Assembly: GCA_965226495.1 (NCBI GenBank)
Contig: OZ245365.1
Location: forward strand, 2,944,001 to 3,008,000
Origin: Candidatus Marinacidobacterales bacterium
Lineage (GTDB): Bacteria; Acidobacteriota; Vicinamibacteria; Marinacidobacterales; DATDRI01
Length of the DNA: 64,000 nt
Direction of reading: 5' to 3'
The notes below the pieces were generated by a model. The model did not search any database, was not told the origin of the DNA, and was given only the letters and a program-made list of their open reading frames with translations. Both the position numbers and the translations under genes were made by a program. Below are positions 1-12,479 of the stretch, one piece after another (position 1 is the stretch's first letter; every line of letters starts with the position of its first letter).

Positions 1-2
1 TG

Positions 3-425
3 GTGCACGAAGTGTTGGCGACGGCCGACTTGGATGCTGGTCGGGAACGACTCGAAGCGTTGGCGCGGAGCCTCGGACGCGTACTCGGTAACACCGAAGA
101 AGAAGTTGACGCCGCCGCTGAAGCCGCCGAGCGAGCCCTCGCCCATCCTCTACTTCGCCAGGCCGAGGCCGCGTCCCGGCAGGAGGCGTCGCTCTTGCGC
201 GAAAGCCCGGTGGTGCTCAAGAGAGAAGACGGCTCGCTGGTCGAGGGAGTGGTCGATCTCGCGTTTCGTGATCGACCCGGCGCCCCTTGGACGGTCGTCG
301 ACTTCAAGACCGATGTGCGGGTCGACATCCGACAGGAAGAGTACCAACGCCAAGTGGCGCTCTATGCGGAAGCCCTCGGTCAGGCGACCGGATCGGAAGC
401 GGAAGGTGTTTTGTTGTACGTGTGA
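3..425 (+). CDS. C-terminal PD-(D/E)XK nuclease domain of an AddA/RecB/UvrD-type helicase-nuclease (5' part outside window)
   Basis: EGVVDL...WTVVDFKTD...YQRQVALYA motifs of RecB-family nuclease domain; ORF open at window edge. Confidence 0.8.
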   Translation: MHEVLATADLDAGRERLEALARSLGRVLGNTEEEVDAAAEAAERALAHPLLRQAEAASRQEASLLRESPVVLKREDGSLVEGVVDLAFRDRPGAPWTVVDFKTDVRVDIRQEEYQRQVALYAEALGQATGSEAEGVLLYV

Positions 426-616
426 TCGGTTCCCAACGCCAGAAGGCGACGTTACTACTCGTTCGGGCACGCGGCGGTCAAAACGCAGAGTTGCTACCAA
501 CCCTGCCTTACAGACGACTTAGCCTCCTAGCACTTGCGCTCGTGCGTCGACACGGTTAGTCTGCGACCGGCTAGACGCAACCCAGGCCGTCAGGCCGTCA
601 GGCCGGGAGACAGGCC

Positions 617-805
617 ATGAGTGCAAAACTGCGAGTCGTGAGCTAGATCCTGATTACACTCATCGGAGGGTTGACGCTTCTCGGATCCGTGACCTAGGTC
701 GCAGACGCGGAGCAAGATCAAATCGGTCCGATGAAACTGAGTGAGCTCGACGACTATCTCGAGCGGATCCTTACGGCGAGGTCGCTCCAAGAAATGGGGC
801 TGTAG
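617..805 (+). pseudogene. Decayed copy of the membrane-protein gene at 10396-10833
   Basis: Translates MSAKLRVVS*ILITLIGGLTLLGSVT*VADAEQDQIGPMKLSEL versus MGNKLRVVSWVLLTLIGALTLLGSV...VADAGQDQIGPMTLSEL; two in-frame TAG; upstream 529-565 also matches 10323-10359. Confidence 0.8.
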
Positions 806-1062
806 CCCTACGAGATTGAAGCGCCGCTAACCGCCACAAAGCGTTTGAGGGTCGGCGGGAGGTCCCTTTTTCGCGACAGCTGGGTTAGCTACCAACAAAA
901 GTACCTGTCCTACGTGTTCCCCTTTCCAATTCGCGGGTTTGAGATCGAGATGCACCATCAAGAACGGCGTCGTTTTCGACAAGGACCCTTTGATGAAGGA
1001 CGTCGTCGATATGGTTGCCGGGGGAAGAACAACTGCACCAACCCCGTGGAGGCGCTTTTCCA

Positions 1063-4041
1063 ATGAGCCCGGTCCGAATCGCTCTTTGTCTAACCGTCGG
1101 ACTCGTCTCGATGGGCCACGCCCAGACCCGCGTCGAGTTCCATCTGCTCCCTGCTATCTCCACCGGCCCGCTCGATCCGGACTGGAGCCCGGACGGACAA
1201 ACGATTGCTTTCGCCATGCGCGGCGATATCTGGACGATCCCCGCCGTTGGCGGAGAAGCCGTGGCGCTCACCGAAGGACCTGCCTACCACTCGGAGCCGA
1301 GCTTCAGCCCCGATGGAACGAAGGTCGCCTTCACGATGGACTTCGACGGCAATCTGGAGATCGGCCTCGTCGAGATAGCCAGCGGAACCATGGAACGGCT
1401 CACGAACGACCCGGAGGTCGATATCGAGCCCGATTGGAGTCCGGACGGAACGAGCTTGTACTTCGCGAGCCGAAGAAACGGCAACCTCGACATCTTTCGG
1501 ATCGATCTTACAACGAAGCGGGTGACGCCCGTCATCACGGGACCGCGCAACGACTTTCAGCCCGCCGTGTCACCCGATGGACGGAAGCTGGCCTATGTCT
1601 CACCGGTGACCGGCCGGAGGGGCTCGGGCGGTATCTGGATGATGCCGCTGCCGTCGGGCGAGCCTCGGCTCGTGCACTACGAAGAGACGAGCTATCGGCC
1701 GAAGCCCCAATGGTCGCCTTATGGCGCCACGCTCACGTACTCCACGGATGCCGCGGGCTCCAACGATATCGCCGTCGTTCTATCCAAGGGTGGAAACCCT
1801 GTGCGTCTCACGGAAGACCCTCTCGATGAGATCGACCCGGCTGTGAGCCCGGACGGTTCGACCATCGCGTTCGTCTCCAATCACCGGGGACCGACGACGC
1901 TCTATACGCTCTCGTCAGCAGGCGGCGCGAGAAGTGCGTGGAGGCCCGTCCGCATCGAGTCACGGCGGCCGCGGTTTGAAACGGGGCGCGTTCGCGGCAC
2001 GGTAAGAGGTCCGGACGGAAGCGTCGTTCCCGCGCGCGTGATGCTCGTCGCGAGTGACGATCGCAGCTATACCGAAAACGGCGGCTTCCATCGGATGGTG
2101 CCGTCCACCCGGACCCATTTCCAGCACACGAGCGGATCCTTCGAGATCGAGGTGCCGGCCGGAACGACGAACATCGAAGCGATGCGCGGCTTCGAGTTCA
2201 TGCCTGCGAAGGCTATCGTCGAGGTGCCCGCGGGCGGTGTCGCGGAAGTCGAGCTCCAACTGACGCGCATCGTCGATCCACGTACCGGCGGCTGGTACTC
2301 GGGCGACATGCATACCCACGATCTTCATGAAGGCCGCTTCGGCCTGACTCAGGAAGGCTTCTTCCATCAGGCCGTGGCCGATGATCTGCACGTGACGAAC
2401 GCGCTCATTCACATGGACGGGACGAAGCTTATGGGCCGGTGGAGCGATCTGACCGGAGAGTCCCATAGCCTTTCGAATAGCGACTACATTCTTCGCTATT
2501 CGCAAGAGTTCCGCGGCTCTTTCGGCCATGTAGCGCTTATCGGTGTCGACGAGTTCATCATGCCGCTCATCGGCGGTGCTGCCAATACACCTTACGCTCC
2601 CGACGTGCTGAAGATCCGTCACATCGACGGTGTTCACGCCATGGGCGGGATCGCGGGCTTCGTTCACCCGTACAACCAGACCGTCGAGACCCCCGAGGAT
2701 GCGGCCGCCGCCGACATCCCCGTGCACGTGGCGCTCGGCAAAGGCGACTTCTACGACGTCGTCTCGATCGCGTCGCTCGATATGGAATCGGCTCGTGTGT
2801 ACAACAAGTTGCTCAACAGCGGGTTCCGACTCGCGGCGACAGGCGGCACTGACAACTTCTCCGACGTCTGGTACGATTCCTCGGGAGGCACCGCCCGAAC
2901 ATACGCGAAGATAGATGGCGGGCTCAGCTTCGAATCATGGATCGAAGCGGTGCGGGCGGGCCGTACGTTCGGAACCAACGGGCCGTTGCTCTTTCTCAGC
3001 GTCGACGGGAGAGAGCCGGGCGACGAACTCCGGCTCGCCAGTAGCGACCCGGCTTCGTTGAGCGTTCGTGTCGATGTTGCATCGATGTCGCCGCTCGACC
3101 AAGTCGAGATCCTCGTCAACGGCGAGGTTGCTCACACCTTTCGGCCGCAGGGTGCCGGCCCACGATGGGAGCTCGATGCGACCATCGTCGTACCGGGGAG
3201 CGGCTGGGTGGCGGCTCGCGCTATCGGCCCCCAGAGTCGCTACATCGGCGACCTGTTTGCTTTCGCACAGACGTCACCAATCTACGTCGTTCGGGACGGA
3301 GTAACCTATACCTCGGCCGCGGACGCACGCTTTCTGCTCAACTCGGTGGAAGCGCTCTGGCGCAACGTCGAAGCGCGAAACACCTGGCACACCCCAGCGC
3401 AGAAAGACGCTTACCGTGACGGCATCGAGACGGCACGTGCGGCTTATCAATCCGTTGTGCTGAGGCACCCCGAGGACGAAGTGTTCCGACAACGAGCGCC
3501 CGAAACGTTGCGCGTGCAGCTGCGGACGAGCGAGGGCGACATCCTCATCGAGCTCCATCGCGAGTGGTCTCCGAACGGCGTCGATCGCTTCTACAACCTC
3601 GTGCGCCACGGGTACTACGACGACACGAGATTCTTCCGCGTACGGGATGCGGACTTCGCCCAATTCGGCATTCACGGCACCCCGGCCGTGGCTCAGGCGT
3701 GGCGAGAACAGACCATTCCCGACGATCGCGTCGTCCAGAGCAACCGTCGCGGACGCCTGGCCTTCGCCATGGGCTACCAGCCAAACGGCCGCACCACCCA
3801 GATCTATATCAACCTAAAAGACAAGACCGAGCTCGACGACATGGGGTTCTCTCCCGTCGGCGAGGTGATTGAAGGGATGGACGTGGCCGATGCCATTTAC
3901 TCCGGCTACGGCGAATCGGCCGGCGGAGGCATCCGTGGCGGCAAGCAAGATCCGATGTTCGAAGGCGGGAACGCCTATCTCGGCGAGAACTTCCCCGAGC
4001 TCGACACCCTCATCGAAGCACGCATCATCGATCCAGACTGA
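1063..4041 (+). CDS. Secreted multidomain protein: PD40/TolB-like propeller + CehA/McbA-type PHP metallohydrolase + C-terminal cyclophilin-type PPIase
   Basis: GGAGG RBS before ATG 1063; signal peptide; repeated P.WSPDG; GDMHTH, SFGH, HP, GTDNF; C-terminal DRFYNLV...FFRV...AQFG...RTTQIYIN...GEVIEGMDV cyclophilin motifs. Confidence 0.8.
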   Translation: MSPVRIALCLTVGLVSMGHAQTRVEFHLLPAISTGPLDPDWSPDGQTIAFAMRGDIWTIPAVGGEAVALTEGPAYHSEPSFSPDGTKVAFTMDFDGNLEIGLVEIASGTMERLTNDPEVDIEPDWSPDGTSLYFASRRNGNLDIFRIDLTTKRVTPVITGPRNDFQPAVSPDGRKLAYVSPVTGRRGSGGIWMMPLPSGEPRLVHYEETSYRPKPQWSPYGATLTYSTDAAGSNDIAVVLSKGGNPVRLTEDPLDEIDPAVSPDGSTIAFVSNHRGPTTLYTLSSAGGARSAWRPVRIESRRPRFETGRVRGTVRGPDGSVVPARVMLVASDDRSYTENGGFHRMVPSTRTHFQHTSGSFEIEVPAGTTNIEAMRGFEFMPAKAIVEVPAGGVAEVELQLTRIVDPRTGGWYSGDMHTHDLHEGRFGLTQEGFFHQAVADDLHVTNALIHMDGTKLMGRWSDLTGESHSLSNSDYILRYSQEFRGSFGHVALIGVDEFIMPLIGGAANTPYAPDVLKIRHIDGVHAMGGIAGFVHPYNQTVETPEDAAAADIPVHVALGKGDFYDVVSIASLDMESARVYNKLLNSGFRLAATGGTDNFSDVWYDSSGGTARTYAKIDGGLSFESWIEAVRAGRTFGTNGPLLFLSVDGREPGDELRLASSDPASLSVRVDVASMSPLDQVEILVNGEVAHTFRPQGAGPRWELDATIVVPGSGWVAARAIGPQSRYIGDLFAFAQTSPIYVVRDGVTYTSAADARFLLNSVEALWRNVEARNTWHTPAQKDAYRDGIETARAAYQSVVLRHPEDEVFRQRAPETLRVQLRTSEGDILIELHREWSPNGVDRFYNLVRHGYYDDTRFFRVRDADFAQFGIHGTPAVAQAWREQTIPDDRVVQSNRRGRLAFAMGYQPNGRTTQIYINLKDKTELDDMGFSPVGEVIEGMDVADAIYSGYGESAGGGIRGGKQDPMFEGGNAYLGENFPELDTLIEARIIDPD

Positions 4042-4074
4042 TCTACTCTGCGTGGTGGTAGTAGACGGCCTGGT

Positions 4075-4240
4075 CGCCGCCGCTGAAGCCGCCGAGCGTG
4101 CTCTTGCCCATCCGCTACTTCGTCAGGCCGAGGCCGCGTCTCGGCAAGAGGCGTCGCTCTTGCGCGAAAGCCCGGTGGTGCTCAAGAGAGAAGACGGCTC
4201 ACTGGTCGAAGGAGTTATGGACATTTTGCTGTACGTGTAG
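4075..4240 (+). repeat. Partial duplicate of the helicase-nuclease 3' end (copy of 110-250 plus 408-425)
   Basis: 141 bp with 9 substitutions versus 110-250, then ILLYV-stop matching VLLYV-stop of the gene end. Confidence 0.9.
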
Positions 4241-4246
4241 CAAGAG

Positions 4247-5242
4247 CTAACCGTCGGTATCGACTCCCGCTAGCTCGATGTGAAGGCCGGGCTGTGGCTC
4301 GCGTGCATAGCGAACCTTCAGCCGCTCGCCAGCTCTGGGCCGCCCTCCAAGGGGAAGCTCCACGGGATGGGTAAGCCCACTCTCATAGTCGCCGAGAGTT
4401 ATGTCGCCGAAGACCTGAATGCGGGTAAAGAGCATCGGAACCAACCCATCCTGCGGGGTTGTCGGCCAGGTGATGTCGAAGCAACGATCGCCGCCGCTGT
4501 CCAAAGTGAGAGCTCGACCCACATGGATGCGGCGACGCGTCACACCGCTGCCGTTAAACTCGAATTCGCGGCCCGGATCGGTGAGCTCGAGTACGAGATC
4601 GACGCGCTCCGGTATCCATATGCCGTCATCGGCCATCTGAGGGCCCAAGTTGCGTGTGATGCCAACTTGAGGCTCCTTCGCGAGACCGCTCTGCATGGTT
4701 TCACACACCACGACGTCCGGTCGCCAATTCGTCGGACAACGATACTCTGTGGCGTCCACTCGCACGATGTCCTCGATGCGGTCGAGCACCTGGAGCTCAC
4801 GAGCTAATTGGCCAGCGTCTTCGACGGAGCGGTTGTGGTAGTCGAGCAGAATGAAGCGCACGTCTTCCGGAGACCAACGATGGGCTAACGGTAGCGCAAG
4901 CGGCGCAAATGGACCGCAACCGGCGTAGAGGACCCTCACGCTCCCGCCAGACACACGCGCTCTAACTTGCTCGATAGCCGAGAGAGTCGCCTGCATGAAC
5001 TTCCGAGAGCGTGCGAAATCGCGAAGGCAACGGGCCGCGTCGAGGGCACAAATGGCTTTTCCGGCCGGGAGGACATGTTCGTCGACGTGGGCTTCGGCAG
5101 GTGCGTTCTCGTCCAGACCCACACGTTCGGTGAATAATTGAAACAACCGATCGGCAGACGCCCTCTGGTCACCTGGGCTCGCACCGGCGGCGACGAGTAC
5201 GTCCGCAGCGCTGCGCACTTCGCTCACCCAAGCGGGCTTCAT
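4247..5242 (-). CDS. SAM-dependent methyltransferase with protein-arginine-methyltransferase (PRMT)-like motifs
   Basis: VLYAGCGP motif I; DVVVCETMQSGLAKE double-E loop; GIWIPERVDL; GLTHP THW-like loop. Confidence 0.65.
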   Translation of the reverse strand: MKPAWVSEVRSAADVLVAAGASPGDQRASADRLFQLFTERVGLDENAPAEAHVDEHVLPAGKAICALDAARCLRDFARSRKFMQATLSAIEQVRARVSGGSVRVLYAGCGPFAPLALPLAHRWSPEDVRFILLDYHNRSVEDAGQLARELQVLDRIEDIVRVDATEYRCPTNWRPDVVVCETMQSGLAKEPQVGITRNLGPQMADDGIWIPERVDLVLELTDPGREFEFNGSGVTRRRIHVGRALTLDSGGDRCFDITWPTTPQDGLVPMLFTRIQVFGDITLGDYESGLTHPVELPLGGRPRAGERLKVRYAREPQPGLHIELAGVDTDG

Positions 5243-5393
5243 CCCTGCTCCCCTCCCCCGTTGTTCGTCATTCGGGGCCTATGCTAGCAGACCAGGCTGA
5301 CACACGACCTGCGCCACGACTGCTCAAGGCGTCCTGGCATTGGTACAGACCGTGATTGGAATGGCCTACACTGGCAAAGAAAGAACTTCATAG

Positions 5394-5924
5394 ATGACGA
5401 AGCCTGGCTCGAATGATTCCGTCGGCTTGCGGCCCTCCAAAGAGGACGACCTCGAGTTCCTTTACCAAGTCTACGCGTCCTCCCGCGATCGCGAGATGGC
5501 GCTTCTCGTCGAGTGGAGTGCGGAGCAGAAGGAGAATTTTTTACGGGAGCAGTTTCGCCTTCAAGATCGCCACTACAAAACGCATTACGCGAACGCCCGA
5601 TATGACATCATCGAGATCGACGGCAAACCTGCCGGCCGTCTGTACGTCGACCGAATGAAGCACGAGATCCGGCTCATGGACATCGCGCTCTTGACCGAGT
5701 ACCGCAACCGTGGCGTGGGGCGCGCCCTCGTGCAAGATCTACTGGACGAAGCCGATCGAGACCGCATGTTCGTGAGCCTGCACGTCGAGGACAACAATCC
5801 CGCCAAGCGACTCTATGAGCGTATGGGTTTCGTCGAGGTGCGCGAGGTGAGCTTCTACAAGCTCATGCACTGGATTCCGAAGGGATTGACGCCGAAGTTC
5901 GACGAGCCGGCGGAGCTCAGTTGA
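5394..5924 (+). CDS. GNAT family N-acetyltransferase
   Basis: LMDIALLTEYRNRGVGRAL acetyl-CoA motif; NNPAKRLYERMGF. Confidence 0.9.
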   Translation: MTKPGSNDSVGLRPSKEDDLEFLYQVYASSRDREMALLVEWSAEQKENFLREQFRLQDRHYKTHYANARYDIIEIDGKPAGRLYVDRMKHEIRLMDIALLTEYRNRGVGRALVQDLLDEADRDRMFVSLHVEDNNPAKRLYERMGFVEVREVSFYKLMHWIPKGLTPKFDEPAELS

Positions 5925-6222
5925 AGATGGCTTCGTAGAGCCTTCCTGTTTCGTCCTCTGCAATGGGAACGAGAAAGAGCTTCATGCTCCCGAGCCTCTC
6001 GTTGGCCATTGCAAACGTAGACTGCTCCAGGGCCGGTGTTTGTGGACCGCGGAACACCAGGGAAAAGGCTTGGCGTCTTCCGTCGGCAGCGCCGGCGTTA
6101 GTGCGAGTCTCGACGGACACGAGCTCGAGCTCGACGGGCGACGTTTCTTCGAGCTCGATCACGAAACGATGGTTCAGGTAGGCCTTGAAGTCCTCGTGGG
6201 TCACCCTTTGCAGATCAACCAT
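5917..6222 (-). CDS. DUF6916-like small beta protein
   Basis: F...LNHRF...LELVSV...FSLVFRGP...LEQSTF...LFLVPI...YEAIFN pattern typical of tail-collar-associated proteins. Confidence 0.7.
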   Translation of the reverse strand: MVDLQRVTHEDFKAYLNHRFVIELEETSPVELELVSVETRTNAGAADGRRQAFSLVFRGPQTPALEQSTFAMANERLGSMKLFLVPIAEDETGRLYEAIFN

Positions 6223-6256
6223 GAAGCGTCCCGTACCGAGGATTCGGAGTTCGCTA

Positions 6257-6670
6257 TTAGACCAAGCGGCAGACGTTCGCGACGCAGTGAGTCCCCGACT
6301 CGTCGGCGCCAGCCGGCTGGAGGAAAAGCAGGACCTTCTTGCGGCCTACTTTGACCTTGTAGATTCCCTCCGAAACGTGATCTCCATAGGACCCGTGGAA
6401 GACGATCGTGAATTGCTCGACTCCAGGGCTTTTAACTTGGTGCACGTCCGAAATTTCAACGAGATGCCAGTTCTCACCCTGAAGCACGGCCCGAGAGCCC
6501 ACTCGCCGCTGCCACCATTGCGTGGTCAGAGTGTTGTTGCGCCGGCCTCGCCGCCTTCGCCGTCTCTTACGCTTTCGTCCCGCATCGACGGCGGGTGCGA
6601 ACATCGCGGGCAGACCCGCGGCAACAACCGTGGCGGCCGCGGCGGTTATGAATCGACGACGGTCTACCAT
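6257..6670 (-). CDS. Tat-signal DUF6916-like protein with poly-arginine segment
   Basis: GAGGAG RBS before ATG 6670; DRRRFI twin-Arg motif plus hydrophobic stretch; GRKRKRRRRRRGRR; EQFTIVFHG...EGIY...LFLQP paralogous to 5917-6222. Confidence 0.65.
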   Translation of the reverse strand: MVDRRRFITAAAATVVAAGLPAMFAPAVDAGRKRKRRRRRRGRRNNTLTTQWWQRRVGSRAVLQGENWHLVEISDVHQVKSPGVEQFTIVFHGSYGDHVSEGIYKVKVGRKKVLLFLQPAGADESGTHCVANVCRLV

Positions 6671-6746
6671 TGAACTCCTCGTTTCTGGGGGCGTCGGCTC
6701 GTGTCGCATGCCCCCAAGCATTTTACAGGTTCCAACGCGTGTGCTC

Positions 6747-7259
6747 CTAACTTCGCGACGGGTAAAGGCCGAGTAGCGCGATGATGAAGTTGAGCGCGAG
6801 GAAGGGCTGCATGTTGTTGTGGGCCTGCACGGGATCCCCGCCGACCGTCTCCCCCATATTTGCGAGGTCGTTGGCGGGACCATAGGCGTTCCCCGTCGTC
6901 GCTGCGAGTGTCACGTCCTCGGAGGGAGTACCGGTCGTGGCGGGTTGGCTGGATACGCCGAAGGAGTGATTGTGGGACGCCATCTCTTGTGTTGTGACCG
7001 TGTGCGTCTCCGCGCCCCCGCGCTCGCCCAGGCGCCGCGAGGTCAGACCCGCCCCCCTTCCGGGATGCAGGGGAGCGCGACCGAGAAGATTGGGCAGACC
7101 GAAGGTCGTCCGGCCGTCACCACCGTAGATTGTGCCGACCAAAGAGAAGAGCGCGGTATTTTGCGCGACGGACATCAGTTGGCCGTTACAGAAGGCCCAG
7201 CCCCGCGGGGCGAAGTTCCCGGCGAAGATCCGGACTTCGGCAATGAATGGCTCGGACAT
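6747..7259 (-). CDS. Phage tail-collar domain protein (microcystin-dependent protein MdpB-like), copy 3
   Basis: MSEPFIAEVRIFAGNFAPRGWAFCNGQ...ALFSLVGTIYGGDGRTTFGLPNLLGR...HNNMQPFLALNFIIAL. Confidence 0.9.
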   Translation of the reverse strand: MSEPFIAEVRIFAGNFAPRGWAFCNGQLMSVAQNTALFSLVGTIYGGDGRTTFGLPNLLGRAPLHPGRGAGLTSRRLGERGGAETHTVTTQEMASHNHSFGVSSQPATTGTPSEDVTLAATTGNAYGPANDLANMGETVGGDPVQAHNNMQPFLALNFIIALLGLYPSRS

Positions 7260-7372
7260 GCCTTACCTCCTCAGTTACGCGATGGGTAGACGCCAAACAG
7301 GGCGATGATGAAGTTAATCCCGAGGAAAGGCATTGTGTTGTTGTGCGACTGGCTGCCGCCACTGTTTTGCAT

Positions 7373-8406
7373 CGCGAATTCATAAAGTAAGTGCAACACA
7401 GCTCCCGGATGAGGTGACCTGGAATGTGCCACGATTCCTCAAACAACCAAGAATGGGGACTCGCTAATGACTTATTACCAGATCACCTCGGAAGAACGCT
7501 ACACCATCGCGGCGCTGCGACGGGAGGGATTTTGCTCGGCCGAGATCGCGCGGCGCCTGGGGCGCCACCGGAGCACCATCTCGAGAGAGGTCAGGAGGAA
7601 CAGCTCACCTAGTGATGGATGCTACCGGCCGAGCAAGGCCATCGAGAGAACGAACGGACGACGCTCGCGGTCTCGCCGGAACCAGTACTTCACAAAGGCC
7701 GACTTTGCCCTGGTGGAGAAGAAGCTTAAGGCCGACTGGAGCCCAGAGCAGATCTCCGGCCACCTGCGCCTTCACGGCGAGCTCTCGATCAGCCACGAGA
7801 CGATCTACACCCACGTTTGGCGGGACAAGGAGGCCGGAGGACATCTATACCGCCACCTTCGATGCTCGCCCAAACTTAGACGCAAGCGCCACAACAGCTA
7901 CGACAGCCGAGGCCGCCTGGCCGGGAAGCGTCACATCTCCGAGCGGCCGTCTTGTATCGACAAGCGCCGTGCCGTTGGACACTGGGAGATTGACACCGTG
8001 GTAGGAAAAGACGCGCCGGACTGCGTCACCACGCTCGTGGAATCGAAAGACGGGGGCGATCGGCAAACTGTCCGAGCAGCATGTTCGGCACTAGCCGAAG
8101 ATGTTGCTCCGGAGGGTCAAGACCATCACCGCGGACAATGGAAGTTCCACGACTACGAATCCGTCGAGGAAGCGACCGGCGTCAAGTTCTACTTTGCAAC
8201 TCCCTATCACTCATGGGAGAGAGGCAGCAACGAGAACTTTGGATTGCTACGTGCCGAAGCGCACCAGCGCAGCGCTCACGCAACGCCACTGCGATGGTAT
8301 CGCAAAGAAGCTCAACACTTTCGGCCCCGCAAGAGGCTCGGTTACCGCACACCGGAGGAACGTTTCCATGGGAACTAACGAATGGTGCTTCAAACTTGAA
8401 GTCACA
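7373..8406 (+). mobile_element. IS30-family insertion sequence (about 1034 bp) with 3-bp CAT target duplication
   Basis: Imperfect IRs GCGAATTCATAAAGTAAGTGCAACAC / ATGGTGCTTCAAACTTGAAGTCAC; CAT at 7370-7372 and 8407-8409; encloses transposase. Confidence 0.85.
7467..8378 (+). pseudogene. IS30 transposase, frameshifted in the DDE domain
   Basis: IARRLGRHRSTISREVRRN, WSPEQIS, GHWEIDTV, PYHSWERGSNEN, RPRKRLGYRTPEE; the KTITADNG motif lies in another frame (ORF 8101). Confidence 0.85.
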
Positions 8407-8844
8407 CATTGCGCTTGCGTGCATCGTGCTTTCCGTGCCGGCTCGGTAGAGCGACGTGCTACCCGTGTCGCCGGTGACATTGCCCCCCGGGTCTCCGAGC
8501 GTGGCCGCGTCCGTCGAGGCCGCCCGATGGGTGTGCGACGGCAACTGGTTGGTGGTCAGCGTCACCTTCTCGGCTCCCGTCCTCTGCCCTAGGGGTCGGC
8601 TGCTCAGGCCCGTCCCTTGTCCGGTGTGGAGGGGAACCCGACCCCGCAGGTCGGGCAGGCCGAAGGTCGTCTCGCCGTCGCCGCCGTAAATCGTCCCTAG
8701 CAGGCTGAACAAGGCATTGTTCTGCGAGATAGCCAACAGCTGGCCGTCACAGAATGCATAGTTCCGCGGCGCAAAATTTCCCGCGAACATTTTGATCTCG
8801 CCAACGAAAGGTTCAGACATAGACTCTCTCCTTCTCTGTCTGGC

Positions 8845-9375
8845 CTAGTTGCGCGACGGGAAAAGACCCGTCAGTGCGATCACAAACCGTAGCACCAGGA
8901 ACGGCTGCATGTTCTCATGCGCCTGACTGCCTCCTGCATTAGATGGTCCGCCGAGCAATCCTGTCAGGTTCGCCGGGGCGGTATAGTTCCTAGAACCGCG
9001 GCGGGGCCGCGAAGCAAGGACGTTGCCCCCCGGGCTCGTCTCGGTGGCCTGATCCCACGACCCGAACTTGTGATCGTGTTGGGGGATCTGGTTCAAGCTC
9101 AGGGTCTCGGCCTGGGTTCCGTCGCTGGAGCCGAGCGGCCGGTCGGTGAGCCCTGCCCCTTGTGAGTCGCCTGAATGGACGGGCGTCCGACCGCGAAGGT
9201 CGGGCAGGGCGAAGTCCGTCTCTCCGTCGCCGCCGTAGGTCGTCCCGAGAAGCGAGAAAAGGGATTGGTTTTGGTTGATCGGCAGGAGCTGCCCGTCACA
9301 GTTTGCCCACCCGCTCGGTGGGAAGTTGAACCCCAAGATCTTGATCTCAGCAAGGAACGGATCGGACACGCTCAC
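8845..9375 (-). CDS. Phage tail-collar domain protein (MdpB-like), copy 1
   Basis: SDPFLAEIK...GWANCDGQLL...LFSLLGTTYGGDG..FALPDLRGR...HENMQPFLVLRFVIALTGLFPSRN; start may be GTG 9369. Confidence 0.9.
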   Translation of the reverse strand: MSVSDPFLAEIKILGFNFPPSGWANCDGQLLPINQNQSLFSLLGTTYGGDGETDFALPDLRGRTPVHSGDSQGAGLTDRPLGSSDGTQAETLSLNQIPQHDHKFGSWDQATETSPGGNVLASRPRRGSRNYTAPANLTGLLGGPSNAGGSQAHENMQPFLVLRFVIALTGLFPSRN

Positions 9376-9448
9376 CCCCTTGACATCGCGCTGAGCCAGA
9401 GTCCACCGGCTCAGTCGAGAACACTTTAACCGAGCTTCTTCGCCTCCG

Positions 9449-10081
9449 CTACTGGGTCCGACGCCACCGCCTTACGGCGAGTCCGGCGAGCCCGAGCAGC
9501 GAGAGAAGCAGCGTGCTCGGCTCGGAAACCGGAGCGGTATGATCCACCGTGAGGTTCAAGGTAATCGACCCGAGATCCCTCCCGCCCGCGTCCCCGACTA
9601 CCAGCGTGTCGACAAACAGCTTGACGCTGTTCCCTGTGAAAAACACCTCCGAGCCCAGCCCGACTCCCGTGACGTTGCTCAGTACGACCGACAAACCGGT
9701 GATGATTCCGGGCACGGGCCCGCTCCAGAAGAGATTCGAAAACTCGTAGAATGAGCCTGCACCGAACCCGGTCGTTCCCCCCAGCCCGTCTCCGCGGACC
9801 ATGTACTGAATGCTCGCATCGCCGATATCGATGAACTCGCCGCCGAGAAGACCCGTGCCGCCGATGTTTGTTAGGTCGCCCTCTAGGATCTCAACTCCGA
9901 GATTCACGACGGTAACAATGTCGATCAGGTCATCCAAAGGGTCGGGGAAGAACACTGGGTCCCTAAGCCGCACCGTGACGTCCTGCCCGATGAGCGAAGC
10001 CAAAGCTTGCTCCGGCAACCCGACCGCGACAATCCCGATAACACCAACGACTAAACACCGTCTGAACCCCATGCGCGTCAT
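9449..10081 (-). CDS. PEP-CTERM sorting-domain surface protein
   Basis: Signal peptide; C-terminal VSEPSTLLLSLLGLAGLAVRRWRR (variant PEP motif, TM helix, basic tail). Confidence 0.85.
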   Translation of the reverse strand: MTRMGFRRCLVVGVIGIVAVGLPEQALASLIGQDVTVRLRDPVFFPDPLDDLIDIVTVVNLGVEILEGDLTNIGGTGLLGGEFIDIGDASIQYMVRGDGLGGTTGFGAGSFYEFSNLFWSGPVPGIITGLSVVLSNVTGVGLGSEVFFTGNSVKLFVDTLVVGDAGGRDLGSITLNLTVDHTAPVSEPSTLLLSLLGLAGLAVRRWRRTQ

Positions 10082-10111
10082 CTCCGTTCGGAAAAATGCA
10101 AGAGGAACAGG

Positions 10112-10127
10112 TGCAATCCGTGTACCA
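10112..10127 (-). promoter_or_regulatory. Sigma54 (-24/-12) promoter of PEP-CTERM gene
   Basis: Minus strand TGGTAC-ACGGA-TTGCA versus consensus TGGCAC-N5-TTGCW, about 30 bp upstream of the start. Confidence 0.7.
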
Positions 10128-10180
10128 AACGCTAACCCCTCTTCTTTGAACGGCTTGGCCTAAACTGCAAATTGCGAAGG

Positions 10181-10298
10181 TGTAAGGTTGCCGGACACGT
10201 TTCCATTTCTTTCGGCAGTGGCTGGACGAATGTCATTTATATTCAATGAAATAGATGGGAGAAGCCCGTGATGCGGAGAATTGTCAGGTTTTCTGACG
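10181..10298. promoter_or_regulatory. Two TGT-N11-ACA type enhancer boxes (PrsR/PEP-CTERM-box-like)
   Basis: TGTAAGGTTGCCGGACA at 10181-10197 and TGTCAGGTTTTCTGACG at 10282-10298, upstream of the sigma54 site. Confidence 0.55.
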
Positions 10299-10327
10299 TT
10301 CTCGACGAGCGGCGACTTCGAAAGCAC

Positions 10328-10356
10328 TTGCTCTCTTCGTTCGACACGGTTAATCT
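10328..10356 (+). promoter_or_regulatory. Putative sigma70 promoter of 10396 gene
   Basis: TTGCTC-17 bp-TAATCT; similar sequence retained upstream of the duplicate at 617. Confidence 0.45.
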
Positions 10357-10395
10357 GCGCACGACTTTGACGCCGTCGAGTCGGGGAGACGAGTT

Positions 10396-10833
10396 ATGGG
10401 CAATAAGCTGAGAGTAGTGAGTTGGGTGCTGTTAACGTTGATCGGTGCGCTGACGCTTCTCGGATCCGTGGCGTCCGTGTACGTAGCCTACGTCGCCGAC
10501 GCGGGGCAGGATCAGATCGGTCCGATGACACTGAGCGAGCTCGCCGAAGGGCGGAACGACGTCGAAACCGCCCTCCGAGCCCGGCGCGGCACCGCCGCGG
10601 CGTTCGCCACTGGTTATGCTCTGTTGTTCCTGACGATCGTCCTCGTCCCCTACCGCAAAGGGGAAGTATGGGCCTGGTGGGCCCTTCTGATCGGGACGGT
10701 CGCAACGACAGGCGTCATTTTGATGCGCGTCCCGATGATCGCGACCAATCTCGGCCTCGCCGCGGCAACGATTCCGCTCGCCGTCGGTGTCGTCGCCCTT
10801 TTGCTCGATGCCGGCCGCTTGAAGGCAACCTAG
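10396..10833 (+). CDS. Small four-TM membrane protein, function unknown
   Basis: GGGGAG RBS; four hydrophobic segments; PYRKGEVWAWW. Confidence 0.75.
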   Translation: MGNKLRVVSWVLLTLIGALTLLGSVASVYVAYVADAGQDQIGPMTLSELAEGRNDVETALRARRGTAAAFATGYALLFLTIVLVPYRKGEVWAWWALLIGTVATTGVILMRVPMIATNLGLAAATIPLAVGVVALLLDAGRLKAT

Positions 10834-10960
10834 CCCCTACATCGCCCGGCGCGGGGACCGACTGCGCCCCCGCGTTGACCTGGCAGTTGTTGTTGGAAAC
10901 ACCCTGTAAAAAGGCGTTACTATTGAGCCCCTCGGGAACCCATGCCCGAGCCCCACAAAC

Positions 10961-11731
10961 ATGTTCCGATCCGCGGAAGAGCACAACCAGTATCAGCGAG
11001 CCTATTATCAGCAGTGTGAGCGTCGGACGATCCAGCCGCGCGACACTCCTTACGTCCAGCGCCAGTTGGAGCGGGTCCAAGCCGCGGCCGACCTTCGCCC
11101 CGGCCAGGAGGTTCTCGAGGTAGGCTGCGGGATGGGCCGGCATACGCTGGCTCTTGTGCGGGAGGATATTCGTCTCGTGGCCTGTGACCTTTCGCCCGAT
11201 CTGTTGGCGCGACTGCGAAACGCCGTGCCGACTCCCAAGCTCGAAACACTCTGTTGTGACGTGGCCGAACTGCCGCGGCACACCAACCGGCGATTCGATC
11301 GGGTCGTGGGTTTCTTTACGCTCCATCATTTCTTCGACCTGCGCGCGGCGTTCCAGGGAATCGCGTCGGTGCTCCAGCCAGGAGGTCGAGTGGCGTTCTG
11401 CGAGCCGAACGGCTACAACCCGCTCTTCTATGTTCAGATTGCCGTCGTGCCGGGGATGACGTGGAAGGGCGACGGCGGCGTGCGGCACATGCGGCCCTCG
11501 ATCGTGCAAAGGGCGATGCGGGAGGCCGGTTTTGGCGACCTCCGAGTGGAACGATTCGGATTCCTGCCGGGCTTTGCTGCCGATACCAAGGTGGGGCAAT
11601 CTCTAGAGCGCGGCTTGGATCGGTTCGTTGCCCTGCCTCCCCTTCGGGCACTGCAGGCGTTTCAGGTATTCAGCGGCACCCTCGTCGGTCAGGGACGGAT
11701 CGACGAAGAAGAACGGCCGGCGCATGGCTAG
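10961..11731 (+). CDS. Class I SAM-dependent methyltransferase
   Basis: VLEVGCGMG, FDRVVGFFTLHH, VLQPGG. Confidence 0.85.
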   Translation: MFRSAEEHNQYQRAYYQQCERRTIQPRDTPYVQRQLERVQAAADLRPGQEVLEVGCGMGRHTLALVREDIRLVACDLSPDLLARLRNAVPTPKLETLCCDVAELPRHTNRRFDRVVGFFTLHHFFDLRAAFQGIASVLQPGGRVAFCEPNGYNPLFYVQIAVVPGMTWKGDGGVRHMRPSIVQRAMREAGFGDLRVERFGFLPGFAADTKVGQSLERGLDRFVALPPLRALQAFQVFSGTLVGQGRIDEEERPAHG

Positions 11732-12479
11732 GCCATCTTCCCCTTCGGTCGAAATGCGTTTCCGCGCCGATCGCCTCGAACGGCTCTCCGAAATCGAAGC
11801 ATGGCACTTCTGGTTTGCCGGACGTCGAGAGCTCATTGGCACCCTGCTCGATCGACACCTCGCTCCTCACCAACAGGTTCTGGATGTAGGTTGCGGCACC
11901 GGCCGTCAGCTGGAGAGCATCGCGCAGAAAGGTCATCGCGCCGTGGGGCTCGATCTCCGCCCCGAAGGCCTGCAAGCCATGCGAGAAGGCGGGGTCTCTG
12001 TCGTCCAAGGCCAGGTGACCGAGCTTCCACTCAAGCCTGGGTCTCTAGATGCCGTGGTCGTGATGGACGTTCTGGAGCACGTGGATGATGGAGTGGCGTT
12101 AGCCGAAGTACACGATGTCTTGCGTGATGACGGTCTGGCATTGATTAGTGTTCCTGCGTTTCCACAAGTTTGGAGCTACCGCGATCAGGACGCTGGCCAC
12201 CTGCGTCGCTACACGCGCCCCGAGCTCAGCGAACTCCTGATCGGCCATGGATTCCGAGTGCTCCAGGTGTGTTATTACCAATGTTTGTTGTTTCCGGCCT
12301 TGATTCTCAGCCGATGGCTCGGCCGGCGTGGTCCCGGCTGGCGAAACTTCGAAGAGCAGAAGCTTCCACTTCTCAACTCAGCATTGGCCTGGGTCAACCG
12401 AATGGAAGCGCGGCTCGGGGCGAGAGTACGACTGCCTTGGGGCTCGTCCCTGGTGGTGGCGTGTCGGAAGCAAAAATGA
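11724..12479 (+). CDS. Class I SAM-dependent methyltransferase (surface-glycan cluster type)
   Basis: EAWHFWFAGRR, VLDVGCGTG, DVLEH, GHLRRY; overlaps both neighbours. Confidence 0.85.
   Translation: MARPSSPSVEMRFRADRLERLSEIEAWHFWFAGRRELIGTLLDRHLAPHQQVLDVGCGTGRQLESIAQKGHRAVGLDLRPEGLQAMREGGVSVVQGQVTELPLKPGSLDAVVVMDVLEHVDDGVALAEVHDVLRDDGLALISVPAFPQVWSYRDQDAGHLRRYTRPELSELLIGHGFRVLQVCYYQCLLFPALILSRWLGRRGPGWRNFEEQKLPLLNSALAWVNRMEARLGARVRLPWGSSLVVACRKQK

Follow-up and report, generated by a model that had tools for sequence, protein, structure and literature searches.

A compact, putative bacterial methyltransferase with a predicted PRMT fold, encoded beside a tail-collar gene cassette

We propose that a gene in a 64,000-nucleotide stretch of DNA from a Candidatus Marinacidobacterales bacterium (the window, by which we mean the whole stretch that was analysed) encodes a compact, single-module bacterial homologue of the protein arginine methyltransferases (PRMTs), whose nearest counterpart is the N-terminal, active module of PRMT7. 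Judged from its sequence and its modelled structure, this protein, hereafter MT, is probably an arginine methyltransferase, a reading to which we give a probability of roughly 0.65. PRMTs are generally regarded as eukaryotic enzymes and, to our knowledge, few of the enzymes that methylate arginines of bacterial proteins have been identified. The MT family keeps the PRMT fold, together with the glutamates predicted to clamp the guanidinium group, in a minimal form of 330 aa. In addition, its placement beside DUF6916 and collar genes and its fusion to a hydroxylase give concrete candidate substrates, and PRMT-type protein arginine methylation in bacteria therefore becomes directly testable. A minimal PRMT devoid of the arm, as predicted here, would also inform the origin of the eukaryotic enzymes. 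The coordinates of the gene, of its motifs and of its surroundings are given in Table 1.

Table 1. The methyltransferase gene, its motifs and the neighbouring cassette, in window coordinates
Feature	Position	Strand	Evidence or remark
MT, PRMT-fold class I SAM-dependent methyltransferase gene (fold as predicted)	4247..5242	-	ATG-started ORF, 331 aa
C-x2-D-x2-R-T-x2-F helix block before motif I, residues 72-82	4997..5029	-	
SAM motif I, residues 104-115, unusual form L-Y-A-G-C-G-P-F-A-x-L	4898..4933	-	G108, G110, P111 104/104
Double-E loop E181...E190-P-Q, residues 176-192	4667..4717	-	E181, E190 104/104
G-x3-P-E barrel entry, residues 207-216	4595..4624	-	P211 104/104, G207 87/104
Loop Y-[DE]-S-G-[LI]-T-x-P in barrel, residues 286-293 (contains GLTHP)	4364..4387	-	
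GNAT acetyltransferase, divergent from MT, tail-collar cassette member	5394..5924	+	PF00583 E 1.2e-14
DUF6916 type a, without signal peptide	5917..6222	-	PF21880 E 1.6e-28
DUF6916 type b (Tat signal, basic tract, DUF6916)	6257..6670	-	TAT_signal, TIGR01409, PF21880 E 2.9e-7
Tail-collar gene 1, end ...YPSRS	6747..7259	-	PF07484 E 9.4e-27, PHROG tail proteins
Tail-collar gene 2, 3' fragment, end ...YPSRN	7271..7432	-	severed from 5' part by IS; repeat family D3
Transposase ORF, putatively IS30-like, within collar gene 2	7467..8378	+	HTH_38 E 2.1e-15
Tail-collar gene 2, 5' part (inner end approximate)	8415..8820	-	PF07484 E 1.3e-28 on ORF 8182-8820; repeat D1
Tail-collar gene 3, end ...FPSRN	8845..9375	-	PF07484 E 5.9e-27
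PEP-CTERM surface protein, head of minus-strand gene row	9449..10081	-	PF07589 E 7.4e-5
Repeat D2, one edge of putative ~6-kb inserted block	4075..4215	.	94%-identical copy of 110-250
Junction and 5' start of gene 10396-10833, other block edge	10323..10470	.	repeats D4, D6

Firstly, we compared the predicted structure of MT with known structures. The AF2 model (pLDDT 95.5, pTM 0.93) adopts the two-domain PRMT fold, in which a Rossmann domain is followed by a beta-barrel: residues 102-180 alternate strands and helices in the manner of a class I Rossmann domain, and the C-terminal barrel comprises nine strands between residues 208 and 324, so that the PRMT beta-barrel for which the original prediction asked one to look is present in the model. 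In a Foldseek search of the PDB, all 42 matches listed are PRMTs (E 3.6e-11 to 1.1e-9). An independent alignment of the model to 48,161 PDB chains likewise placed PRMTs at all of ranks 1-15 (Z 19.7-11.8), with 232-274 residues aligned for these 15 chains, spanning positions 38-331 of the model, and methyltransferases made of a Rossmann domain only ranked below them (Z ≤ 11.7, 135-194 residues aligned). The top match is the N-module of C. elegans PRMT7, with a Z of 19.7. Between the first long strands of the barrel, the model has a helix (223-226) and a loop up to residue 237, and relatives of MT carry variable insertions at this place; the dimerisation arm, as modelled, looks vestigial. Modelling of MT as a homodimer gave a score of 0.01 against a mark of 0.42, a value that is uninformative either way.

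Secondly, we followed the motifs through an alignment of 104 family sequences, whose relatives are 29-48% identical to the window MT and from which all conservation counts are taken. The original prediction had described an ORF with SAM motif I, a double-E loop, a G..P motif and a late GLTHP in this order, and all four are located in the translation, as VLYAGCGP (104-111), DVVVCETMQSGLAKE (176-190), GIWIPERVDL (207-216) and GLTHP (289-293). The second of these holds E181 and E190, nine residues apart. Eight residues are invariant (104/104), namely R78, G108, G110, P111, D163, E181, E190 and P211, and both glutamates, whose conservation had been singled out as a test, are thus among them; D134 is kept in 99/104. 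The double-E loop is flanked by L187 (103/104), P191 (98/104) and Q192 (95/104). Upstream of motif I, MT has the D/E-x2-R-x2-[YF] helix block of PRMT modules, with C72 in 100, D75 in 90, R78 in 104 and F82 in 93 of the 104 sequences; position 79 is a threonine in 97/104 and a serine in the query. The proposed likeness of the barrel loop to the THW loop of PRMTs, also part of the original prediction, is a likeness in the threonine only (T291, 92/104), as the histidine (H292) is found in 11/104 and no Trp follows; as a family feature it is therefore limited to the Thr and to P293 (97/104), S288 being kept in 86/104.

A profile built from the 104 sequences reached C. elegans PRMT7 (E 5.7e-6) and mouse PRMT7 (E 9e-4), with the D..R block, motif I, the E-x8-E and the barrel-entry proline in register. 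The helix block aligns with ILDFDRNDKF of C. elegans PRMT7 and the matching stretch of the mouse protein, motif I with VLDIGTG, and the barrel entry with vP..tv of PRMT7, the strands of the model running from residue 208 onward. E181 and E190 are aligned by the HMM to the E...E of DIIVAEVFDTELIGE in C. elegans PRMT7 and to those of mouse PRMT7, and the E-x8-E spacing that had been proposed as PRMT-like is identical in the double-E loops of PRMT7. A 44-sequence profile was weaker (PRMT7 E 0.0058), and PRMT1 was reached by the 104-sequence profile at an E of about 0.5 only. As sequence comparisons go, these motif matches are far beyond chance. MT is thus shown, in model and alignment, to combine a predicted SAM-binding Rossmann domain and a PRMT barrel with an invariant double-E that falls on that of PRMT7. 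The fold search, the PRMT7 profile match and the invariant glutamates therefore bear out the reading of MT as a PRMT-like enzyme. We propose that MT would bind SAM through the A-G-C-G-P of motif I, D134 and D163, hold a guanidinium group in a clamp formed by E181 and E190, and methylate one of the terminal nitrogens of the arginine.

MT belongs to a large family of bacterial proteins that is unnamed and spreads horizontally. The family amounts to 1547 cluster representatives (clusters at 50% identity), spread over at least 148 species genomes and many phyla, and the genome of the window, of 6.34 Mb, holds a single copy. The MT tree is at odds with taxonomy. Among 30 relatives of the window bacterium, drawn from its genus, family and order, none yielded a copy of the gene. 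The MT protein matched no Pfam family at E ≤ 0.1, gave no relevant match in NCBIfam and none in PHROGs or PADLOC; a protein atlas search returned unnamed or generic methyltransferase clusters only, and a single-sequence phmmer search of the PDB nothing but designer PPR-repeat artefacts. Across the family, PF13649 is matched by 48/104 members, the curated PRMT model PF05185 (PRMT5) weakly by 2/104 (best E 0.005) and PF03059 (nicotianamine synthase) weakly by 11/104 (best E 1.4e-4), the query having no match to the latter; nicotianamine synthase chains are absent from the best 50 chains listed from the structure search. A literature search for bacterial PRMT homologues, for DUF6916 and for collars combined with a methyltransferase, judged partly by titles and abstracts, found neither the MT family nor the cassette described.

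Longer forms of 584-719 aa also belong to the family, and the relative P0156 (719 aa) consists of two modules in tandem, as in PRMT7 and PRMT9. An Asp/Asn beta-hydroxylase domain is fused to MT in two of the closest relatives of the window protein (L001 and L002) and in 4 further ones, and in one case (P0173) MT is fused to a GNAT; these partners are of protein- or peptide-tailoring types. Two candidates were rejected. P0173 does not serve as a Rosetta stone for the window GNAT, the two GNATs not being close (E 0.04). An apparent DUF6916-MT fusion in the locus L059 proved to be a 444-448-aa frame in which Pfam detects no DUF6916, the DUF6916 ORF lying in another frame and abutting the MT start. 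The long MT frames of L009 and L013 hold no extra domain. A dedicated search for further long fusions gave no match, at a low sensitivity, since it also missed the 584-719-aa forms. PF05118 gave no match in the genome of the window, nor in the control genomes, so that this negative carries no weight.

Thirdly, we analysed the surroundings of the gene. The window cassette is composed of three PF07484 collar genes, a GNAT gene, DUF6916a, a Tat-signal DUF6916b and a PEP-CTERM protein, and MT is parted from the row by the GNAT gene on the opposite strand. A stretch of ~5 kb contains MT, each of the 3 collar genes and the only 2 DUF6916 copies of the genome. The ORF of the type b gene extends over 6257-6883 (-), its likely true start being the Met of the Tat signal, as tabulated. 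The transposase ORF retains N-terminal HTH domains only and its catalytic part looks degraded; our reading of it as IS30-like comes from the HTH_38 match and the C-terminal sequence, not from a family match. Duplicated junction sequences stand on both sides of MT and the cassette: repeat D2 derives from 110-250 (the 3' end of gene 3-425) and its copy abuts the MT stop; at the other edge, the 5' start of the gene at 10396-10833 recurs at 529-691 in decayed form (72-80% identical). MT may have arrived together with the cassette as one block of ~6 kb. Around the cassette, PHROG tail-fibre matches were obtained for the collars only, with none for the MT, DUF6916 and PEP-CTERM genes, and PADLOC gave no match on the region. 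The same gene set is present without MT in another genome (G018), the cassette likewise occurs without MT in G195 and G197, and homologues of the GNAT (32-50% identity, BLASTP) lie next to MT or collars in 5/80 related loci.

We then assessed the linkage between MT and the cassette in other genomes. In 8 of the 80 related loci a DUF6916 gene adjoins MT and shares its strand, and for 5 of these 8 the DUF6916 and MT alignments are 5-33 nt apart; the identity of DUF6916 is confirmed by Pfam for 3 ORFs next to MT, and the adjacency is met across Bacteroidota, Verrucomicrobiota, Pseudomonadota and Acidobacteriota. Collar genes are found within 9/80 MT loci, the other 71 having none in the flank. 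In a sample of 48 MT-bearing genomes, biased by its inclusion of all loci whose linkage was known beforehand, MT lies at most 13 kb from a collar gene in 12 and at most 3.1 kb in 10, and no collar gene was found in 10; in 4 complete Pyrinomonadaceae chromosomes the MT-collar distance is 1.3-1.9 Mb. Within one family, collar genes occur in 13/14 MT-positive and 55/87 MT-negative genomes (54/86 without the collar-positive, MT-negative genome G091), a modest excess to which we give no weight because kinship was not controlled. A quick MT tree spreads the cassette-linked MTs over at least 4 separate branches, and on it the window MT clusters (SH-aLRT 99) with L001 and L002, both cassette-linked; most MT genes of the family stand alone, with no conserved protein partner nearby. 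The link between MT and the cassette is therefore real but facultative, MT being an optional addition to it.

Here the earlier claim that a substrate is encoded nearby finds some footing, since DUF6916 and collar genes are recurrent neighbours of MT, even though the particular tract then named does not (see below). We propose tentatively, as a weaker part of our reading that we rate a little short of even, that MT acts on the adjacent non-phage tail-collar cassette, with its 3 collar chains, 2 DUF6916 proteins and GNAT, as an accessory tailoring enzyme. The acceptor would therefore be an arginine of a cassette protein, and not specifically the poly-Arg tract. In a more precise version, which we consider a long shot, MT, free-standing in the window and fused to the Asp/Asn beta-hydroxylase in its nearest relatives, would methylate the Arg of the collar tail G-[ILV]-[FY]-P-x-R-[NS]-COOH, and the hydroxylase would act on the adjacent terminal Asn. 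A penultimate Arg is present in 23/34 intact collar tails surveyed, each complete collar triplet surveyed has at least one chain with it, and such a chain is encoded next to DUF6916-MT in Saprospiraceae loci; against this version, the collar-tail Arg is kept all the same in two MT-less genomes (L082 and L087). If true, protein arginine methylation of the PRMT type would for the first time have a defined substrate in bacteria, and the system would be part of an acetylation, hydroxylation and methylation kit for a domesticated phage-fibre tip.

The proximity to the cassette could instead reflect co-transfer on mobile DNA, in which case the arginines that MT methylates would belong to a housekeeping protein or another cellular protein unrelated to the cassette. 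Consistent with this are the majority of MT genes, which have no link with the cassette, the conflict between tree and taxonomy, the failure to find the gene in the 30 relatives, and the IS and duplicated junctions, which mark a rearranged region. However, the adjacency recurs in those at least 4 branches and in several phyla, often with gaps of 5-33 nt and on the same strand, and, out of 6.34 Mb, the sole copies of the MT, collar and DUF6916 families all fall within 5 kb; we regard this reading as unlikely.

The acceptor could also be a small molecule: free L-arginine, or else a metabolite or peptide derived from arginine, whose guanidino group MT would methylate. Bacterial enzymes of this kind exist: according to excerpts of two papers, SznE/StzE (UniProt A0A411EW25) converts free L-arginine into N-omega-methyl-L-arginine in streptozotocin biosynthesis (PMC11705231, PMC12637814). 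The stand-alone state of most MTs, with 71/80 loci lacking collars, the small barrel and vestigial-looking arm of the model, and the adjacent GNAT, whose best PDB match is a spermidine N1-acetyltransferase (E 1.6e-5), point the same way. Biosynthetic genes (NRPS/PKS, an SznF-like oxygenase or transporters) are, however, absent among the window ORFs of 1-12000 and were not seen as recurrent MT neighbours in related loci, and the partners that do recur are small proteins (DUF6916, collars) and domains of protein-tailoring type. The small-molecule acceptor is an improbable alternative by our estimate, albeit one with a known precedent.

The Tat-signal DUF6916 protein contains a poly-Arg tract, GRKRKRRRRRRGRR, whose coding sequence is at 6539-6580, ~1.3 kb from the MT start. 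The original prediction had called this tract the obvious candidate substrate, which its distribution does not support, since the tract is lineage-specific and MT is present in 0/3 of the other genomes that have an orthologue (G018, G195 and G197). PRMT7 is described in excerpts of two papers as favouring basic, arginine-rich RXR substrates (PMC8399567, PMC10202292), and DUF6916 genes are the closest recurrent neighbours of MT. The tract was seen in the window protein (near-identical entry P0267) and is kept, in a longer form, in the 80%-identical orthologue P0268, which is encoded by none of the 55 genomes from this order. In more distant orthologues it is nevertheless shrunk or absent: it is down to R-x-R-R-L-R in those of 50% and 54% identity, a short basic motif or none is left over the range of 39-54% identity, and it is absent in G195 and reads PRRRKLRARRLRR in G197. 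Moreover, the DUF6916 that abuts MT in 4 of 5 loci (L058, L060, L063 and L079; L059 is not included) is a signal-less type a without basic tract, and in L026, where the neighbour of MT is a Tat-type DUF6916, this protein lacks poly-Arg. Among ORFs of 90 aa or more in the 80 MT loci, none was poly-Arg/Lys apart from 2 GC-rich ORFs that we read as off-frame, and no conserved arginine was found in DUF6916. Methylation of this tract is thus very unlikely. Also very unlikely, in our view, is a PRMT scaffold re-used for another acceptor (lysine, N-terminus, glutamine) or another SAM reaction, such as an aminocarboxypropyl transfer of the nicotianamine synthase type, for which the weak PF03059 matches, the atypical motif I (A-G-C-G-P-F) and the missing THW His/Trp may speak, but against which stand the guanidinium-binding PRMT glutamates, which are the most conserved residues and align on PRMT7, and a best PRMT chain ~8 Z units over the non-PRMT chains.

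Among known systems, SznE is probably PRMT-like, and SznE/StzE is the sole experimentally characterised bacterial precedent that we found for guanidino methylation. MT shares with this SAM-dependent guanidino-N methyltransferase its bacterial origin, and the methylation of a guanidino nitrogen as a prediction only; SznE/StzE differs in acting on a free amino acid within a biosynthetic gene cluster, no such cluster being present at MT. The PRMTs other than PRMT7 (PRMT5, PRMT9, PRMT2, PRMT3, CARM1, PRMT6, PRMT10 and PRMT1) are found at structure ranks 3-15 (Z 18.2-11.8), without significant sequence similarity to the MT family; other eukaryotic PRMTs carry TIM-barrel, SH3, zinc-finger or TPR additions at the N-terminus and a full dimerisation arm (in part from PMC8399567). 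From PRMT7 itself, MT is set apart by ~13% identity, its bacterial origin, its single 331-aa module, the A-G-C-G-P form of motif I, the lack of the THW His/Trp, and, in the model, two extra N-terminal helices and no obvious dimerisation arm; by eye, no zinc-finger was seen in MT. PRMT7 is nevertheless the closest known system: its chains align with the model over both domains (Z 19.7, 18.9 and 18.0; 242-262 residues), it is the only significant sequence match of the family profile (E 5.7e-6 and 9e-4), and it has in common with MT the D..R helix block, the position of motif I, the E-x8-E, the barrel-entry Pro and the Rossmann-then-barrel order, as well as, in one member of the MT family, the tandem two-module form.

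The methyltransferase gene (hereafter MT) lies exactly where the original prediction had placed it, and the motif strings on which that prediction was built are all found, in the order claimed: VLYAGCGP (residues 104-111), DVVVCETMQSGLAKE (residues 176-190, with E181 and E190 nine apart), GIWIPERVDL (207-216) and GLTHP (289-293). In an alignment of 104 sequences, each 29-48% identical to MT, the invariant columns are G61, R78, G108, G110, P111, D163, E181, E190 and P211, followed by L187 (103/104), D134 (99/104), P191 (98/104), P293 (97/104), Q192 (95/104) and T291 (92/104). The motif set matches a true family signature, but its 'THW' element shrinks to a Thr, H292 being kept in just 11 of the 104 sequences (per-column counts).

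We modelled MT with AlphaFold2 from the same alignment (mean pLDDT 95.5, pTM 0.93). The predicted chain opens with two helices, continues as a Rossmann domain and, from residue 208, forms a nine-strand beta domain. Firstly, a Foldseek comparison of this model with the PDB gave PRMTs in all 42 rows listed (PRMT5, 7, 3, 1, 2, 6 and CARM1; E 3.6e-11 to 1.1e-9, query-normalised TM 0.48-0.60). Secondly, a second independent structural aligner, run on 48,161 representative chains, placed PRMTs at ranks 1-15, headed by C. elegans PRMT7 (Z 19.7, 262 residues aligned, rmsd 4.0) and including mouse PRMT7 (Z 18.9), Xenopus PRMT5 (18.2), T. brucei PRMT7 (18.0) and CARM1 (11.8, the lowest of the 15). The PRMT alignments span model residues 38-331; the best non-PRMT chain reached Z 11.7, and the non-PRMT rows listed align just 135-194 residues, the Rossmann half of the model. 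Thirdly, a profile of 44 MT sequences had C. elegans PRMT7 as its top PDB match (E 0.0058), and the 104-sequence profile brought this to E 5.7e-6 and newly reached mouse PRMT7 (E 9e-4), PRMT1 still standing at about 0.5. In both PRMT7 alignments the pre-motif-I block (LDfaRTakFlrG of the MT family on ILDFDRNDKFLAG) and motif I are in register, as are both glutamates (on DIIVAEVFDTELIGE) and the barrel-entry Pro. The PRMT-like character first proposed from the motifs is thus borne out by the modelled fold, the PRMT7 sequence match and the invariance of both glutamates.

Judged by homology searches, MT belongs to a large protein family. A word-indexed search returned 127 matches, and an exhaustive search of 1.84 billion representatives returned 1547 cluster representatives at E <= 0.001, 1239 of them at E <= 1e-10. 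The family occurs in at least 148 species genomes (confirmed via one peptide pattern) from Acidobacteriota (mostly Pyrinomonadaceae), Bacteroidota, Verrucomicrobiota, Pseudomonadota, Gemmatimonadota, Planctomycetota, Chloroflexota and other phyla; the MT profile had no match in 30 relatives from the same genus, family and order. With MT as query, Pfam gave nothing at E <= 0.1, and NCBIfam, PHROG and PADLOC held no relevant model; relatives of MT carry few source names, either 'hypothetical protein' or 'class I SAM-dependent methyltransferase'.

MT and the tail-collar cassette in the window
Feature	Coordinates	Strand	Remarks
PEP-CTERM protein	9449-10081	-	first in minus-strand order
Collar 3, then collar 2, then collar 1	between PEP-CTERM and DUF6916b genes	-	
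Collar 2, 5' part	~8415-8820		
Transposase ORF	7467-8378		between collar 2 halves
Collar 2, 3' end	7271-7432		
Tat-DUF6916b	6257-6670 (ORF 6257-6883)	-	carries poly-Arg string; Pfam TAT_signal and TIGR01409
DUF6916a	5917-6222	-	
GNAT	5394-5924	+	between DUF6916a and MT
MT	4247-5242	-	331 aa, ATG start

The 6.34-Mb genome, a single contig, holds one MT, three collar and two DUF6916 genes, all in this region. We start DUF6916b at the Met of MVDRRRF because the TAT_signal and TIGR01409 matches place it there. Repeat families D1 and D3 comprise the three collar 5' parts and the three collar 3' ends, and an IS30-like element interrupts collar 2; the transposase of this element looks degraded, the HTH part alone being recognised by Pfam. 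A segment abutting the MT stop (4075-4215) is a 141-nt direct repeat, 94% identical, of 110-250, the 3' end of gene 3-425. At the other edge, the junction with a membrane-protein gene (10396-10833), at 10323-10470, recurs decayed at 529-691 (direct repeats of 44 and 92 nt, 72-80% identity). Both pairs flank the PD40/cyclophilin gene and the block that holds MT and the cassette, and we infer a single inserted block at roughly 4216-10322; the flanking repeats suggest that an ancestral gene junction took up one or two insertions. The PD40/cyclophilin gene (1015-4041), convergent with MT, encodes 1008 aa with PD40 beta-propeller repeats and a C-terminal cyclophilin-type peptidyl-prolyl isomerase. 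Just past the block, 10961-11731 and 11628-12479 (+) are class I methyltransferase-like ORFs, recognised by GxGxG motifs alone.

The link between MT and the cassette is real but facultative. Scoring all six-frame ORFs of 80 fetched loci rather than curated gene calls, we found DUF6916 adjoining MT on the same strand in eight (L002, L026, L058, L059, L060, L063, L069, L079), with alignment gaps of 5-33 nt in L058, L059, L060, L063 and L079; Pfam confirms DUF6916 in ORFs of L058, L069 and L026. Collar genes lie inside nine of the 80 loci. Collar genes are present, mostly in 3, 6 or 9 copies, in 38 of 48 MT-bearing genomes, a sample of long-flank loci to which all previously recognised linked loci were added, which biases it upward. 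In 12 of these genomes MT and a collar gene lie no more than 13 kb apart, in 10 of them no more than 3.1 kb (hand-combined counts; G034 9.9 kb, G031 12.7 kb, the G044 match weak and partial); in 4/48 they are 1.3-1.9 Mb apart on the same chromosome, and in 22/48 they are on different contigs. On a quick maximum-likelihood tree of 80 of 81 MT rows (one below 250 aa left out), with the window and 11 clearly linked genomes labelled as linked and the weak G044/L017 unlabelled, linked MTs fall into at least four groups separated by starred branches; window MT, L001 and L002 form a trio (support 99). Within a sample of one family, 13/14 MT-positive and 55/87 MT-negative genomes have collar genes (the unpublished genome G091 counted). 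Genome G018 carries collar genes, both DUF6916 genes and a GNAT-like ORF (by eye) with no MT; at the edge of this MT-less cassette, where the window has MT, lies an IS200/IS605-type-looking transposase ORF (by eye; L082, 564-1016).

Some relatives are fusions: L001, L002, P0113, P0120, P0124 and P0128 join MT to an Asp/Asn-beta-hydroxylase (PF05118, E about 3e-18 for L001 and L002), P0173 joins it to GNAT and P0162 to DUF1801, and the L069 MT carries a Methyltransf_9 domain (PF08003, DUF1698). The window adds a recurrent coupling of a PRMT7-like family to the collar cassette and to its hydroxylase. Neither a bacterial PRMT-fold family nor DUF6916 nor a system pairing collar genes with a methyltransferase is described in the open literature surveyed, mainly titles and abstracts.

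The original prediction saw an obvious candidate substrate in the poly-Arg tract of DUF6916b. The tract also occurs in P0267 (99% identical, in essence the window's own protein) and P0268 (80%), is reduced to G-R-N-R-R-L-R in P0269 (50% identical) and to R-P-R-R-L-R-K in G018, reads P-R-R-R-K-L-R-A-R-R-L-R-R in G197 and is missing in G195. MT is found in none of the three DUF6916b-carrying genomes G018, G195 and G197; the MT-coupled DUF6916 proteins of L058, L060, L063 and L079 are short, signal-less and devoid of any basic tract. The DUF6916 family has no conserved arginine, and a Tat-DUF6916 protein occurs in just 2/30 relatives (genus, family, order) and 3/54 other genomes of the order. Shrinkage or loss of the tract in orthologues, its absence from the MT-coupled DUF6916 proteins of those four loci and the absence of MT from G018, G195 and G197 argue against this substrate, which we consider highly unlikely; it is kept alive solely by analogy with PRMT7, described as favouring basic RXR sites (PMC8399567, PMC10202292). 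The tract itself (6539-6580) places 13-14 Arg/Lys immediately after the Tat signal peptide's hydrophobic core and A-x-A-like site. This run is conserved in P0268 and uncommon among exported proteins; it might prevent targeting to Sec or serve as an anchor.

A better candidate, speculatively, is the collar tail. The C-terminus G-[ILV]-[FY]-P-x-[RPQ]-x is conserved in L002, L026, L058-L060, L063, L069, L072, L079, L082, L087 and the window; 23 of 34 intact chains end in P-x-R-x, with at least one in each complete triplet surveyed. In Saprospiraceae triplets two chains end in P-S-[PQ]-x and the third in P-P-R-x, in constant gene order. The fused hydroxylase might then act on the terminal Asn next to the tail Arg. 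This Arg is retained in MT-less genomes as well. A small guanidino compound, although unlikely, is a serious alternative, because SznE/StzE are described as methylating free L-arginine (PMC11705231, PMC12637814) and MT-family genes are mostly stand-alone. Methylation of an unrelated cellular protein seems improbable to a similar degree, and a non-arginine acceptor very improbable.

Compared with canonical PRMTs, MT is ~13% identical, has the unlike motif I A-G-C-G-P-F and lacks the THW His/Trp. In the segment that probably corresponds to the dimerisation arm described for PRMT modules (PMC8399567), the model predicts a helix of 4 residues followed by a loop, and insertions there vary among relatives. 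None of the curated PRMT models match MT, and PF05185 is touched by just 2/104 family members. Because of these differences, we call MT a predicted PRMT-fold homologue outside every named PRMT subfamily. One relative, P0156 (719 aa), comprises two tandem PRMT-fold modules with E-x8-E in both, and thereby mirrors the two-module architecture of PRMT9. The same arrangement resembles that of PRMT7, described as two tandem modules (PMC8399567).
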